Both the position numbers and the translations under genes were made by a program. This document shows positions 23,954-63,223 of a stretch of DNA of 64,000 nucleotides, piece after piece. Position 1 is the first letter of the stretch. Each line of letters starts with the position of its first letter. Source of the stretch: an uncultured archaeon (GTDB lineage Archaea > Nanohalarchaeota > Nanosalinia > Nanosalinales > Nanosalinaceae). The DNA is taken from positions 64,001 through 128,000 of the forward strand of contig CAYQYU010000001.1 in NCBI GenBank assembly GCA_964421955.1, in the 5' to 3' direction. The notes beneath the pieces are model-generated. The model searched no databases. It was not told where the DNA came from and was given only the letters and a program-made list of their open reading frames with translations.

Positions 23954-25603
23954 CTAATCCCTGACTAGATTCAGGAGTTTCTGCACATCGATCTCGAAGC
24001 CCGCAACCTTTCTGTCGAGCCCCCAGTTTTCCACCACACTGTTAGAGAACTCGCCTATGACTCCTACATGTTCCCCTTCGAACATGATATCTCCGGAGCG
24101 ATCCTGGCGGAAACATTCTTTCCCGGAAGATTCAATCTCAAATTCGACTCCGAGTTCACGCCCCAGAACCTGTAAAACCTGCCGTACATCAGTGTAGCCC
24201 ACTCCATTGTCCGAGTGAACATATGCTAGCTTCCTCTTGTTCGAAACACCTACCGCAGAGTTGTCGAGTTCGGAAACATCCGCGACCTCGAAGAACTTCT
24301 GCGGGTAGCTCCTGTGCCTATTCCGGCCGAGCACCTCCATAAGCGACGGCAGTAGCCAGTTCCTCACAGCGGTATAATCCTCAGTTAGGGGGTTCGACAT
24401 AGAGGCGATGTCTTCCTCCTCTAAGCCCATCTTTTCGAACAGCTTCTCCCTGTTTGAAAGGATGTAGGTATGAGCCTCCAGAGCCCCGGTTCCCTGGAAA
24501 ATATCTCTCAACAGCCGTGTATAATTCTCGACCGGTTTCTCGTTACCGATCTGGTCGGCCTCCGGCAGCTCTGGCTCTATATTATCGTATCCATGGGCTA
24601 TCACCACGTCCTCTATAACATCATACTGGTGCATCACATCGTTCCTGTAGGCGGGCACCTCAACAATGATCTTCCTCTTTTTCTTCTTCGCGCCGAACTT
24701 CATCCTCTCCAGCCGCTCGACAATCTCCTTCCCGTCGAGTTCAAGTCCGGAGACCTTCTGGAAGTACTCGATATCAAGCTCCCGCTCCTCCGGTTCGAGA
24801 TCCGGCATTACAGTGCCGTCGACACCCACTGCCTCTATCTTTCCTCCTCTCTCCGCCAGCGCAGTCGCAAGGATATTCAGGGCCTTCATAACTGTTTCAC
24901 GATCCTTTCCTGTAACATCGATGAAGATGTCCTGGGTTCCTGCAGAAACTTCTGTGAGCTGGTTGTTAATGATAGGCGGGAATGAGAGTACACGGTCTTC
25001 CGCATCCACAATTATAGGGTAGCGGTCCTCGTCCTCCAGTATCCAGGCGTACTCCTGTCCTTTCTCGTGCTCTTCGAGAATCTCCCCGAGCTGCATCTCT
25101 CTGTCATACTCAAGCGGTTTGAAAGATACTTTCTCGGGTTCGACCGCCCTGTATGTGAAAGGAGGCTCAACAGCGTCAAGGTCATGGAGGCCGATAGCGA
25201 GCTTGTCACGCCTTCTACCCATCGATTCATGGAGCTTCTCCTGTAGCTGTATCAGTCCGTTGATCATCCTCTCTGAAAGCTCCAGATCACGGACAACCGC
25301 ACCGCCGATGTAAGGTCTTACGTCTTCAACCGAATCTTCAATCCTGATCTCCGTGCTGCCGTCCCGGATCCTGTATTCGTCCAGACCCTGCTCCAGCCCG
25401 AAGAATCCTCGATACGCGCGGGCAAGACCCTCCACTGACAGAAGGTCGGGACGGTTAGGATAGACCTCCACGTCCCACTTTTCGCCTTCTACGTGGTTCC
25501 AGTGCGCGCCCAGGAAAGACGCCTTTTCGTGGAGAAGCCGCTCATCAACCTCATTCTCCATTAGACTGTCGAACTCCTTCTTGTTTATTTTGATATGTGA
25601 AAT
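23954..25603 (-). CDS. pheT: Phenylalanine-tRNA ligase beta subunit (probable ATT start at 25603)
   Basis: PNRPDLLSVEGLARA, LQEKLH, IGLHD, SFPPIIN, YRNDVMHQYDVIEDV; in-frame upstream extension SHIKINKKEFDSL. Confidence 0.95.
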   Translation of the reverse strand: MSHIKINKKEFDSLMENEVDERLLHEKASFLGAHWNHVEGEKWDVEVYPNRPDLLSVEGLARAYRGFFGLEQGLDEYRIRDGSTEIRIEDSVEDVRPYIGGAVVRDLELSERMINGLIQLQEKLHESMGRRRDKLAIGLHDLDAVEPPFTYRAVEPEKVSFKPLEYDREMQLGEILEEHEKGQEYAWILEDEDRYPIIVDAEDRVLSFPPIINNQLTEVSAGTQDIFIDVTGKDRETVMKALNILATALAERGGKIEAVGVDGTVMPDLEPEERELDIEYFQKVSGLELDGKEIVERLERMKFGAKKKKRKIIVEVPAYRNDVMHQYDVIEDVVIAHGYDNIEPELPEADQIGNEKPVENYTRLLRDIFQGTGALEAHTYILSNREKLFEKMGLEEEDIASMSNPLTEDYTAVRNWLLPSLMEVLGRNRHRSYPQKFFEVADVSELDNSAVGVSNKRKLAYVHSDNGVGYTDVRQVLQVLGRELGVEFEIESSGKECFRQDRSGDIMFEGEHVGVIGEFSNSVVENWGLDRKVAGFEIDVQKLLNLVRD

Positions 25604-27009
25604 TACGCATCACCTCCCGTCTTGTCCGGCCTCCATGCTGGCGTCTGTTCAAGTATTTCGATGTCGTTCCTGTAGAGTTCACGGATATCTTCAAGTCCTG
25701 CAGACTTCATCGCTATTCTCGGTATCCCTAGGCCCCAGGCGAGAACCGTAGCCTCGAATCCCAGCATCGGTTTCACCACTTCCGGCCGGAACATTCCCGC
25801 GCCGCCGAGCCCCACCCATTCCTGGTCTTTCTCATCCCACACATGCACCTCGACACTCATCTCGGTGTAGGGGAAGTAGCTCGGGACTAAACGGAACTCC
25901 TCGAACCCCATTTTGCTGAAGAACTCGCTGATGTAACCCTTCAGGTTCGTGAACGACAGGTCTTTCCCGACGACTATGCCGTCGGTCTGGTAGAACTCTG
26001 CGAGATGGAAGCGGTCGACTGTCTCGTTCCGGAAGTTCCTGGATACTGTAAAGAACTTCTTCGGCAGCTCCTCTTCATTTACATCGATCTCATGTATCCT
26101 CTGTATAGAGACCGCAGTAGTATGTGTCCTAAGAACATTCTTCTTTGCCTCCTCCAGCGACCAGTCGTATCCCCAGCCTCTTGAGCCTGTTTCCCAGCCG
26201 TTTTCATGCGTCTGCTTCACGTGATCGACCTTGTCTCCATAGCTTGAAAGGTCCGCTTCCGCAGGATCTTCCATGAAGAATGTGTCATGCATCTCCCTTG
26301 CAGGGTGGTCCTGGGGGGTATAGAGCGCGTCGAAGTTCAGGAAGCTCGATACTATGAAGTCGCCAGACATCTCCTGGAAGCCCATTTCCAGCCACTTCAT
26401 CCTTGCCTGATCTATTATGTCCTTGTAGAAATGTTTCTTGCCGATACGCGGGGTCTTCACCGATGCCTCGACATTAAAGTCCTCGTCGATTTCGCCCAGT
26501 TCTACCGACTCACCCTCCGCAGTGATCTCGATGACTCTCTCCGTTTTTTCCCGGGTTCTTACCAGCCCGCGTTCTTCAAGGTCGGTATCGTAGTTCCGGG
26601 ACTCCAGCTTCTGCCGGACAGGATCGCTGTCAAGATTCTCCCTGCCTTTCCTGGTGAGCGATGCCTCGCCGTCCTCGAGCCTCACCCACGATTTTTCTCT
26701 CGCTTTCCCTAAAGCTACGTCGAGATCAAGGTCTTGGAGATCAGAAAGTTCTCTGGATTCATCTTCGAGCCTCTGCACCAGCTGGTATTCCGGGGAACCG
26801 TGCTCCAGAACATCTCTGCCCGCGTCGGTAAGTTCGTGCGTTAGTTCATCCTCTTCCTGTATCTTCGCGAGCCCTTTCTCTTCAAGTTCCAGCCCGGCCC
26901 TGTGAACCATCGACTGGTCGTATCCCTCTTTCTCGAGATCCTCAATCTTCAGGGAACTCTTCTGCTTGAGCTCCTCCAGAATCTGGATTGCCTGGCTTGA
27001 AAGCTTCAC
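25603..27009 (-). CDS. pheS: Phenylalanine-tRNA ligase alpha subunit
   Basis: NFDALYTPQDHPAREMHDTF, LRTHTT, FRNETVDRFHLAEF, SYFPYTE, GAGMFRPEV; GTG start. Confidence 0.96.
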   Translation of the reverse strand: MKLSSQAIQILEELKQKSSLKIEDLEKEGYDQSMVHRAGLELEEKGLAKIQEEDELTHELTDAGRDVLEHGSPEYQLVQRLEDESRELSDLQDLDLDVALGKAREKSWVRLEDGEASLTRKGRENLDSDPVRQKLESRNYDTDLEERGLVRTREKTERVIEITAEGESVELGEIDEDFNVEASVKTPRIGKKHFYKDIIDQARMKWLEMGFQEMSGDFIVSSFLNFDALYTPQDHPAREMHDTFFMEDPAEADLSSYGDKVDHVKQTHENGWETGSRGWGYDWSLEEAKKNVLRTHTTAVSIQRIHEIDVNEEELPKKFFTVSRNFRNETVDRFHLAEFYQTDGIVVGKDLSFTNLKGYISEFFSKMGFEEFRLVPSYFPYTEMSVEVHVWDEKDQEWVGLGGAGMFRPEVVKPMLGFEATVLAWGLGIPRIAMKSAGLEDIRELYRNDIEILEQTPAWRPDKTGGDA

Positions 27010-27040
27010 GTCTGGAGTAAAACAGTGAATTCTTTAATAA

Positions 27041-27736
27041 TTACGCAGTCTCAAGTACTGCGGCAGCCACTATCAGCACAACTCCCAGTGCAACCAGTTT
27101 CAGCAGGTCGAGCCATGTATCCTTCTCGAAATGTTCCCTGTACATCGCGGCAGACATCATCGTGCCCGCGATCCCGGCAATGATAAATCCCAGCATCTCC
27201 AGCGATGCGTGTGGAACGTACGCGAGCGGTAGCACCGGGGTCTGCTGGAAGATATCCGCGAGAAATACTCCGAGAACCGAGGCGTTCCAGGTCAGTATGA
27301 AAGATCCCGCGGAACCAACTACAACTGCTACCGTAAGTATCCCGAGGAAAACTATGATGTTGTTCAGGAATATCGAGCCGAAGGAAACAGGGTTTACAGC
27401 GTTACCGGTCGCGCCTATTATCTGGTTCTGTAGCTGGAAAACGTCGCTGAAATAGAGAGCCATTATGAAGAATGCGACGACCTCTCCAAGGAAAACCGAT
27501 CCGTAAACCATGATCTCAGGTATGTGAGGTGCGGAGTTGTTTTCGCGTTCCAGGAAGTAACTTGTAAGAGGATAGATCAGCGGTATTGCGGCGAACATGA
27601 CCCCGACTATGTCGGCCTCCGAGGGGAAAAGCCACCTCGCGGCCGCAAAGCCCGCGAGTCCGGAGAGAAGGCCTAGACCCACGAGAAGGGCAAAGTTCTC
27701 CTCTTCCTCCTCTCTCAGTATAAGCTCCGGGAGCAT
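27041..27736 (-). CDS. SpoIIM-like (DUF95) multi-pass membrane protein
   Basis: IFLNN...ILTWNASVLG...PHASLEMLGFIIAG motif; ATG 27736 lies ~25 nt after a TTTAAA box. Confidence 0.75.
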   Translation of the reverse strand: MLPELILREEEEENFALLVGLGLLSGLAGFAAARWLFPSEADIVGVMFAAIPLIYPLTSYFLERENNSAPHIPEIMVYGSVFLGEVVAFFIMALYFSDVFQLQNQIIGATGNAVNPVSFGSIFLNNIIVFLGILTVAVVVGSAGSFILTWNASVLGVFLADIFQQTPVLPLAYVPHASLEMLGFIIAGIAGTMMSAAMYREHFEKDTWLDLLKLVALGVVLIVAAAVLETA

Positions 27737-27802: not shown

Positions 27803-28117
27803 TCAGTCCAGGTTCTCCCAGTCCTGGAGCCAGTGTTCTACACGCTCTCTTTCACCGTTCCGAGCCCCGGTCAGGTCACAGTAGTAGTCGACCAGCGCTT
27901 CCTCCTCTGCAGGGTCCACAGTTGCGCCGCTGGGACGGTAAAGACGTGCCGTGCTCACGTCCTCCAGGATAACTATTGCACCCGTTTCACCAGCCCAGTG
28001 GATCTTGGAACCGGGCTCAACCGGCCTATAGTCCGGGTTCTCAAGCTCTGTTAGTTCTCCAGGAGCCTCTGCATCCGGATTCTCGAGATAACCCTCAAGA
28101 CAGCGGTATCCATTCAT
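27803..28117 (-). CDS. Hypothetical acidic protein
   Basis: GGAGGTGA SD 6 nt before ATG, TTTAAA box upstream. Confidence 0.75.
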   Translation of the reverse strand: MNGYRCLEGYLENPDAEAPGELTELENPDYRPVEPGSKIHWAGETGAIVILEDVSTARLYRPSGATVDPAEEEALVDYYCDLTGARNGERERVEHWLQDWENLD

Positions 28118-38162: not shown

Positions 38163-38267
38163 CCGTCTATATCAGTATCTTTTAATCGATATAAATCTGC
38201 TGACCCGGAGGATTAATGGTTTAAAAGAGTGCACTCCGGTTTCGTTTTATACAACCAGCGTTTCTAT

Positions 38268-38342
38268 AGCGGGGTAGAGCAGCCAGGAGTGCTCGTCGGG
38301 CTCATAACCCGGAGGTCCGTGGTTCAAATCCACGCCCCGCTA
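38268..38342 (+). tRNA. Initiator tRNA-Met(CAT)
   Basis: A1-U72 pair, GGG/CCC anticodon stem, CT-CAT-AA loop, TTCAAAT T-loop; TTTTATA box ~20 nt upstream. Confidence 0.95.
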
Positions 38343-38421
38343 AAACTTCTGAAAGTTTTATCATCATAAACCATTCAATGACTGGCTTTCAGCGCTTGAT
38401 CGAACTTAGCGCCTGAAGTTC

Positions 38422-62083: not shown

Positions 62084-62251
62084 TTTATAAAACTTGGTTG
62101 TGACTGTTGAATTACTCTCAGGCACACTGGAACCACTGGTTCCGGGTTCGCAGAAGCTCCGTCAAGGAGTTTCGAGCGGTTCTTGGGAGACAAGCCTTCG
62201 CTTGTGGTGAAGGCCTCTGGAGCGAGTCAACCGAACAAGAGGTGACTATCT
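62084..62251 (+). promoter_or_regulatory. TATA box and structured 5' leader of the rpl3 operon
   Basis: TTTATAAA 62084-62091; several hairpins; GAGGTGA SD 62239-62245. Confidence 0.6.
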
Positions 62252-63223
62252 ATTTCCGACGTAAACAGACCACGCAGTGGATCGCTAGGGTTCAAGCCCA
62301 AGGTACGCGCACAGAGGATCTATCCAGAGATAGATAACTGGAAGGACGAGGAAGAGATGAAGCCGCTGGGATACGCCGGCTACAAGGTCGGCATGACACG
62401 AATCCTGATGATCGACGATACCGAAGGAGCGACAAGCGGTCAGGAAGTTGCGACACCAGTAACAGTACTTGAAGCACCACCTCTCCGGATATACGGCGCC
62501 CGTTTTTACACCGAAGACCCTAATTCCGGTAAGCAAGTCTTCACTGAAGCGTGGACTGAATCGCCTTCTCCAGAGCTACAAAGAGCGACCGACATCCCGA
62601 AGGAAGGCAACATGGACAACTTTGACGCGGCAAAGGAGATTTCCGACGATCTGATTGACGTGAGGCTCCTGGTCCATACCCAGCCATCACAGGCCGGCAT
62701 TAGCAGGAAGAAGCCGGAGAACTTCGAGATCGGTCTCGGAGGAACAGTTGACGAAAAAATTGAATACGCGGAAGAGATGATTGGAAAGGAGATAGAGTTC
62801 TCCGACGTTTTCGAGCCAGGAGAGTACTCCGATGTTGTCGCAGTGACCAAAGGACGTGGTACTGAGGGTCCGATCAAGAGATACGGCATCAAGAGGTTGA
62901 CCCACAAGACCCAGAAGAAACGACGCAAGGCAGGAAACGTTGGCCCATGGCATCCTGACAAGCTATCGTGGAAAGTTCCACTTCCAGGGCAGCAGGGCTA
63001 CAATAACCGGACGGAGCTGAACAAGAGAATCATCGGATACGGAGAGGAGCCTGAAGAAGTACAGCGCGACGGAGGATTCAAGGGCTACGGCGAGGTCAGG
63101 TCGAACTACATACTCATTAAGGGATCAGTTCCCGGCTCTGAGGAGAGACTTGTAAGGCTGAGAACCGCGCTGAGAAAAGACGAAAAACCAGGAGAACCAG
63201 AGATAACACACGTTGACAGGTGA
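62252..63223 (+). CDS. rpl3: 50S ribosomal protein uL3 (probable ATT start at 62252)
   Basis: GYKVGMT, VTKGRG, GPWHP, GQQGY..RTE.NK; in-frame upstream RPRSGSLGFKPKVRA is the conserved uL3 N-terminus. Confidence 0.97.
   Translation: MSDVNRPRSGSLGFKPKVRAQRIYPEIDNWKDEEEMKPLGYAGYKVGMTRILMIDDTEGATSGQEVATPVTVLEAPPLRIYGARFYTEDPNSGKQVFTEAWTESPSPELQRATDIPKEGNMDNFDAAKEISDDLIDVRLLVHTQPSQAGISRKKPENFEIGLGGTVDEKIEYAEEMIGKEIEFSDVFEPGEYSDVVAVTKGRGTEGPIKRYGIKRLTHKTQKKRRKAGNVGPWHPDKLSWKVPLPGQQGYNNRTELNKRIIGYGEEPEEVQRDGGFKGYGEVRSNYILIKGSVPGSEERLVRLRTALRKDEKPGEPEITHVDR

Follow-up and report, generated by a model that had tools for sequence, protein, structure and literature searches.

AUU is allowed as a start codon by translation table 11, and pcnB is a second bacterial case of it. 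The first is infC, the bacterial gene for initiation factor 3 (IF3), whose natural AUU start is described in a review (PMC4705826). Here, we describe a probable AUU start in pheT, the gene for the beta subunit of archaeal phenylalanine–tRNA ligase, in a 64,000-nucleotide stretch of DNA (the window) from an uncultured nanohaloarchaeon (assembly GCA_964421955.1, contig CAYQYU010000001.1). The genome is referred to as G000 and the contig as C1, the window being G000:C1:64001-128000; coordinates given without a contig are window positions. The codon, ATT in the DNA, overlaps the stop codon of pheS, the gene for the alpha subunit, and a second probable ATT start in the same window belongs to rpl3 (ribosomal protein L3). 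AUU starts are of a known kind with bacterial precedent, and pheT and rpl3 are new, unannotated archaeal examples. To our knowledge, natural AUU or AUC starts of essential, highly expressed archaeal genes are poorly documented, and a literature search covering the main texts of a limited set of papers returned, for Nanohaloarchaea or DPANN, no description of starts at ATT or ATC.

With infC, pheT would have in common an AUU led by a Shine–Dalgarno sequence (SD), an essential translation-related product, the use of initiator tRNA and an efficiency tied to a fidelity factor (PMC4705826). In contrast to the AUU of infC, which is conserved and serves the autoregulation of IF3, the ATT codons of pheT and rpl3 occur only in G000, with no evident regulatory logic. 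The hosts differ as well, as this one is an archaeon with aIF1 and aIF2 and not IF3.

The arrangement of the two genes has its own precedents. Work on Haloferax volcanii has shown termination–reinitiation at overlapping gene pairs, often with a contribution from SDs that lie within the upstream gene (PMC6728339), and the pheS–pheT pair is similar to the coupled ATGA and TGATG pairs of H. volcanii and Escherichia coli in that study (Huber et al. 2019, PMC6728339) in being formed by co-directional subunit genes with a one-base overlap and an internal SD. In that paper, we came across no reference to non-canonical starts. Unlike in these pairs, the downstream start is ATT instead of ATG, and the coupling is a proposed one. 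The 2019 study has reportedly been followed up by another (PMC10666635) on coupled overlapping gene pairs. Near-cognate codons have also been seen in a hypersaline archaeon: harringtonine ribosome profiling in H. volcanii placed ~30% of putative alternative initiation sites at such codons (Gelsinger et al. 2020, PMC7261190), which were set aside there as possible false positives and were not the main starts of essential genes. The present organism is likewise hypersaline, but the near-cognate codon is here the sole possible start of full-length PheT and L3. Lastly, ribosomes of E. coli that have just terminated can reinitiate at non-canonical start codons (PMC4648390), in that case as an artefact of stop codons engineered into the bacterium, whereas pheS–pheT is a native gene arrangement.

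The pheS–pheT junction and the N-terminus of PheT

Both genes lie on the minus strand. The pheS open reading frame (ORF) occupies 25603..27009, including its TAA stop at 25605-25603, and its product scores 438.7 bits against NF003210 (cut-off 350). pheT occupies 23954..25603, with 549 codons from the ATT plus the stop, and is present as a single copy in G000. Since this genome (922,649 bp in 27 contigs) is rated 98.8% complete, the gene must be expressed. The 3′ end of pheS reads ACG GGA GGT GAT GCG TAA, with the C-terminal codons T-G-G-D-A-stop, so that on the minus strand GGAGGTGAT (25617-25609) is followed by GCG and TAA (25605-25603). The proposed AUU start of pheT (25601..25603), which aligns with the starts of relatives and follows an SD, has base 25603 in common with this stop codon (TAATT). 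In the pheT frame, the upstream codons are TGA (25612-25610), TGC and GTA, and hence the frame is closed by the TGA (25610..25612) two codons 5′ of the ATT. The overlap and the closing TGA had both been claimed in the initial annotation of this DNA, and the sequence agrees on both. Downstream of the ATT, the frame continues with TCA, CAT, ATC, AAA, ATA, AAC, AAG, AAG, GAG, TTC, GAC, AGT, CTA and ATG (25561). Between the closing TGA and this ATG there is no canonical start (ATG, GTG or TTG). The ATG (25559..25561), 14 codons 3′ of the ATT, is the first canonical codon and the start of the public 535-aa product (23954-25561 in the ORF list); with a start there, the thirteen codons SHIKINKKEFDSL (25562..25600) that follow the ATT and match PheT N-termini would be lost. 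With its 1-nt stop/start overlap, the co-directional pair fits the layout of termination–reinitiation pairs.

The last pheS codons also hold the SD. The 16S rRNA gene of G000 ends in ...GGATCACCTCC, resulting in the SD consensus GGAGGTGATCC, and GGAGGTGAT (25609..25617, minus strand) agrees with the complement of this 3′ end over nine contiguous bases. Measured as the number of nucleotides from the end of the GGAGG core to the start codon (d), the distance to the ATT is 9 nt. In long ORFs of G000 whose SD has 5 nt or more, this distance peaks at 9-10 nt and starts cluster at 6-12 nt. A 9-nt SD is rare: among the 914 gene calls of G000 that served as background, with the SD scored at the first canonical start, only one has it. 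Several relatives carry a similar SD directly 5′ of their pheT start. Counted from GGTGA, the spacer to the ATT is 6 nt, and the equal spacing that the initial annotation had noted at rpl3 and at the ATG gene at 28117 (GGAGGTGA-GAATCA-ATG) is indeed found.

The position of the ATT corresponds to the starts of other pheT genes. The product translated from the ATT scores 551.7 bits against TIGR00471 (archaeal PheT; cut-off 282.65), with residues 3-544 aligned to profile positions 3-551, so that residue 3 falls on position 3 when the ATT is residue 1. Each pheS–pheT junction was read in loci from 29 related genomes, of which 28 were counted, as L029 is without the N-terminus. In 27 of the 28, the codon aligned to the ATT is ATG (23) or GTG (4), and the relatives' start lies eleven codons before the conserved Phe of a K-x-E-F motif. 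The exception (L028) has ATA at this codon and an in-frame GTG three codons upstream. A second collection, overlapping the first and partly made up of the same genomes, has ATG or GTG at the aligned codon in 17 of 17 loci. In a PDB sequence search, the best matches begin only at residue 38-49, and the search therefore says little on the N-terminus; alignments from as early as residues 11 and 15 are limited to two chains. The solved PheRS beta chains 7dpi_B and 7by6_B show a one-residue offset (query 11 to chain 12). From the relatives' starts, the TIGR00471 alignment and the PDB offset it follows that the 14 residues are part of PheT and that the ATT stands at the start position. As judged by these alignments, the 14-residue extension is homologous to PheT N-termini. 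The relatives keep these residues at the aligned junctions, a comparison proposed in the initial annotation, whose remark that the extension resembles archaeal PheT N-termini is thus borne out.

Probable ATT and ATC starts in rpl3, metG and other genes of the family

The ATT of rpl3 lies 36 kb from that of pheT, on the plus strand. From ATT 62252-62254, rpl3 spans 62252..63223, and its product scores 379.2 bits against NF003261, with residue 3 (ATT = 1) aligned to profile position 3. The gene is preceded by the SD GAGGTGA (62239..62245, length 7, d = 9), which holds an in-frame TGA (62243-62245), and its 5′ end reads GAGGTGA CTATCT ATT TCC GAC GTA AAC AGA CCA CGC, with the same 6-nt spacer as in pheT. 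In the relatives, the aligned codon is canonical in 29 of 29 loci (ATG 27, GTG 1, TTG 1). The first canonical codon in G000 is ATG 62357, 35 codons 3′, and a start there would drop the conserved RPRSGSLGFKPK. In the public protein collection, G000 is represented only by truncated forms (PheT of 535 aa, L3 of 288 aa); the long forms are absent, although the look-up could also miss them because residue 1 is read as I, not M. The 14 PheT and 35 L3 conserved residues are lost because gene callers allow only ATG, GTG and TTG. The initial annotation had further drawn attention to a TCN serine codon after both ATTs. This codon is present in pheT (TCA) and rpl3 (TCC) but fails to appear at other ATT/ATC starts, which gives no support to the idea that it matters.

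To place these two genes in a wider context, stop-to-stop ortholog translations of G000 and of two related whole genomes, G016 and G005, were compared, seeking conserved sequence 5′ of the first canonical start. Conserved promoter-like stretches ending at the aligned Met and shadow frames were removed by hand; such stretches and frames had swamped our first ortholog screens. The rows dropped were 6 of 13 in G000 (EF-1alpha at C1:120486, C23:1233, C2:15726, C2:51520, C3:26395 and C9:36181), 3 of 8 in G016 and 4 of 6 in G005, two of the latter being gene fragments. What remained without a canonical start before the conserved N-terminus were 7 of 777 genes in G000, 5 of 766 in G016 and 2 of 735 in G005, most of them having ATT or ATC at the start position. 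We also ran SD-anchored scans, both of gene calls and of every open frame. With SDs of at least 6 nt, they gave 5 hits for ATT, 6 for AAA and 3 for several codons, and ATT stood out only once loci were further required to score positively as coding and to have their next canonical start far away (three loci, all on C1). As these scans were too noisy to show an enrichment of ATT on their own, we relied on the homology comparison.

In G000, the genes found are pheT, rpl3, a membrane protein (C12:13043, plus strand; SD-led ATC, with ATG in G016), a Zn-finger/coiled-coil protein (C13:18716, minus strand; SD-led ATC), lpd for dihydrolipoyl dehydrogenase (C4:27991, plus strand; SD-led ATC), metG and a protein that we take to be TraB-like from its GTSHVS motif (C1:10204-10900, plus strand); apart from pheT and rpl3, all lie outside the window. 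The last of these has 69 conserved residues 5′ of its first canonical start, and opposite the region of the ATG start in G016 it has a CTG or ATA. In G016, the screen found the Zn-finger gene (ATT), lpd (ATT), a membrane protein (ATT, with GTG in G000), the RFC small subunit (ATC, with ATG in G000 and G005) and metG. In G005, it found metG (ATT) and an FtsY-like protein, its identity read from the N-terminus (ATT, with ATG in G000 and G016). Some of these starts recur in more than one genome. Across 30 lpd loci, G000 has ATC and G016 has ATT; ATG, GTG or TTG is found in 27 others, and a single locus has ATA and a GTG upstream of it. The Zn-finger gene begins with ATC in G000 and, after AGGTGAT, with ATT in both G016 and G010; its start in distant relatives is ATG.

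The strongest case is metG, encoding methionyl-tRNA synthetase (MetRS). Its start position, taken to be the codon that follows a conserved AGGTGA/AGGTGG by 9-11 nt and precedes VTVTSALPY by 4-9 codons, is ATT in 9, ATC in 8 and canonical (ATG or GTG) in 3 of 22 family loci (C8:20105-22189 on the plus strand of G000, and relatives among L263-L291). In 14 of the 17 loci with ATT or ATC, the frame upstream of VTVTSALPY is free of canonical codons, and in several metG loci it opens only 6-8 codons before this block. G000 itself has GTC, and G016 (locus L272) TTC, where the family has ATT or ATC. In G000, the conserved block is preceded by 12 open codons (C8:20105-20140, plus strand), none of which is ATG, GTG, TTG or ATH, and in G016 an ATC stands straight after a TGA, just 3 nt from the SD core. 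With ATT or ATC at 17 of 22 loci, metG is nearer to infC than pheT is: a non-AUG start conserved across relatives, as in infC, is found in metG and not in pheT, whose ATT is confined to G000. Read from these alignments, AUU/AUC starts persist across genus-level divergence in this family, which makes a functional AUU at pheT credible.

The pheT observation goes beyond chance, the ATT being the codon aligned to the relatives' start codon, and the ATT/ATC start sites found by homology all follow an SD. An SD of at least 5 nt precedes 10 of 10 such sites versus 153 of the 914 background gene calls, and one of at least 7 nt precedes 6 of 10 versus 27 of these 153 (Fisher p = 0.005). Their SDs are 5-9 nt long and lie at a distance of 7-10. 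For 7 of the 10, rpl3 not among them, the end of an upstream co-directional ORF (at least 70 codons) is found within 35 nt.

Some further loci were noted during these comparisons. A third ATT candidate (C1:153974-155140 of G000, and 1475-2641 of L031; plus strand) has its ATT right after a TAA and 8 nt after an SD core (SD GGTGAT), 3′ of a tRNA-like 3′ end. It has 81 codons of coding-like composition before its first canonical start, and a search of the 40 other genomes gave no homolog. Two ORFs of G005, 213696-214239 (plus strand) and 351223-351772 (minus-strand indexing), align only inside longer proteins of G000 and G016, from residues ~200 and ~345, and look split or frameshifted rather than alternatively started. 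A stretch at C14:15868-16342 (plus strand) of G000 and 708545-708833 of G016 is ~79% identical when translated, has a start codon in neither genome, and has the look of a conserved non-coding RNA mistaken for an ORF.

Alternative readings of the pheT start

Taken together, the alignment of the ATT to canonical starts in 27 of 28 pheT loci and its overlap with the pheS stop support the proposal of the initial annotation that pheT has a real AUU start coupled to the end of pheS, and we consider SD-led AUU initiation coupled to pheS termination likely. A number of observations weigh against it. The ATTs of pheT and rpl3 are seen only in G000, a pattern that an error or a recent mutation would also produce, and the contigs against which the pheT codon was checked have low depth (~7 and 4), one of them reaching the ATT only at its very end. 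The first canonical codon, ATG 25561, has a weak 4-nt GGAG 11 nt upstream, so a shorter product is possible. Archaeal aIF1 discriminates against AUU in vitro according to a review (PMC4705826), and aIF1 is present in G000. The ten ATT/ATC sites, moreover, are not all independent, because the three genomes are related, and both lpd and the Zn-finger gene enter the count from two of them.

The first of the alternatives takes up the GGAG just mentioned and places the start at ATG 25561, yielding a PheT without the 14 residues; the ATT would then be a start killed by mutation, or both products would be made. The 535-aa form is indeed the sole PheT of G000 in the public protein collection. We regard this as unlikely, as the 14 residues are conserved in the relatives and the family model, the GGAG stems from the conserved K-E-F codons, and the 9-nt SD and the stop overlap both point at the ATT. 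The same logic would also cut 35 residues from L3, including the conserved RPRSGSLGFKPK.

According to the second, the T at 25601 (gene strand) would stem from faulty base calling or assembly, or from a rare variant fixed in a low-coverage consensus, and the true sequence would be TAATG. Relatives carry ATG or GTG at this codon, which would suit such an error. The base was checked against assembled contigs of two public runs of the same study, X1 and X2. The X1 contig, possibly from the source sample of the assembly, spans 25415-27601 without differences at a depth of ~6.9. The X2 contig, from a second sample, spans 25600-25839 without differences at a depth of 4 and meets the ATT only with its first bases. 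The two samples give identical 31-mers, and no insertions or deletions are listed. An exact-pattern scan of metagenome contigs, with N at the critical base, returned no match. Several further facts speak against an error: the ATG-to-ATT pattern recurs at rpl3, 36 kb away; ATC and ATT starts turn up on other contigs as well as in two further genomes, some of the starts being shared between genera; and random errors are not expected to fall on the third base of SD-led start codons. An error at 25601 is thus unlikely, the agreement of the contigs giving support short of proof. The initial annotation had already argued in this direction from the second ATT, and its argument gains from the canonical codon of rpl3 in all 29 relatives' loci, the agreeing contigs and the further ATT/ATC starts.

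Initiation could also take place at another near-cognate codon of the extension, the ATC at 25594-25592 or the ATA at 25588-25586, as both are in-frame ATH codons and ATC starts exist elsewhere in G000. This is highly improbable: at 18 and 24 nt from the SD core, both fall outside the range of 6-12 nt, and they align to internal Ile codons of the relatives, not to starts. Least credible of all is a start at the out-of-frame ATG 25610-25608, joined to the pheT frame by a +1 shift or by an indel error in a TTT run (one T less gives MRNSHIKIN), or a PheS–PheT fusion by frameshifting at the stop, given that this ATG lies just 2 nt past the GGAGG core and would add two residues found in no relative, that the contigs of the two samples have no indels, that GAT GCG TAA offers no slippery heptamer (X XXY YYZ), that the pheS frame closes again five codons past the TAA, and that relatives have separate genes with pheT starting at this very codon.

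Proposed initiation at AUU and its meaning for the Nanohaloarchaea

Fidelity components are present in G000. They include aIF1, which is found in 36 of the 41 genomes overall, Kae1/TsaD and Sua5. The window also encodes a tRNA-Met with a CAT anticodon (38267..38343, C1:102267-102343, plus strand; predicted by aragorn), presumably the initiator, given its 5′-AGCGGGG/CCCCGCT-3′ acceptor end and three G-C pairs by the anticodon loop. Loss of a fidelity component as the cause of the AUU starts is ruled out by aIF1, Kae1/TsaD, Sua5 and this ordinary tRNA-Met. In the whole genome, plain aragorn finds only 12 tRNAs, and many tRNA genes therefore probably have introns or are unassembled.

Initiation of pheT may then proceed as follows. 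The 3′ end of the 16S rRNA would pair with the 9-nt GGAGGUGAU in the last pheS codons, thereby setting the AUU, 9 nt past the GGAGG core, in the P site. Because the AUU and the pheS stop have a base in common (UAAUU), ribosomes that terminate on pheS would be on the spot and could re-initiate, as happens when gene pairs with a −1 overlap are coupled by termination–reinitiation. The ordinary CAU anticodon of the initiator Met-tRNA would read the AUU with a third-position mismatch. PheT would thus begin with Met-Ser-His-Ile-Lys, with the N-terminal peptide (M)SHIKINKKEFDSLMENEVDER, and L3 with (M)SDVNRPR. Stronger SDs and gene coupling may compensate for the weaker codon, and such changes may become fixed by drift where the genome is that of a small symbiont.

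At the level of the family, the best explanation of the recurring start codons appears to be that AUU/AUC starts are tolerated throughout this family of Nanohaloarchaea. A more far-reaching and tentative possibility, which we think rather doubtful, is that Nanohaloarchaea have a relaxed or re-tuned start stringency in which AUU or AUC after an SD is ordinary. The AUU/AUC of metG would in that case serve regulation by tying MetRS synthesis to the status of the initiator tRNA, aIF1 or aIF2, as an archaeal counterpart of infC, and the AUUs of rpl3 and pheT in G000 would have arisen by neutral drift from this permissiveness.

For genome annotation, the truncation seen in PheT and L3 is to be expected in further proteins throughout the Nanohaloarchaea, among them the products of metG, lpd and RFC. 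With ~0.3-0.9% of such starts and a family-wide ATT/ATC in metG, this lineage is a natural system for start-codon fidelity, and it also suits the study of compensation by strong SDs or gene coupling and of drift in reduced symbiont genomes.

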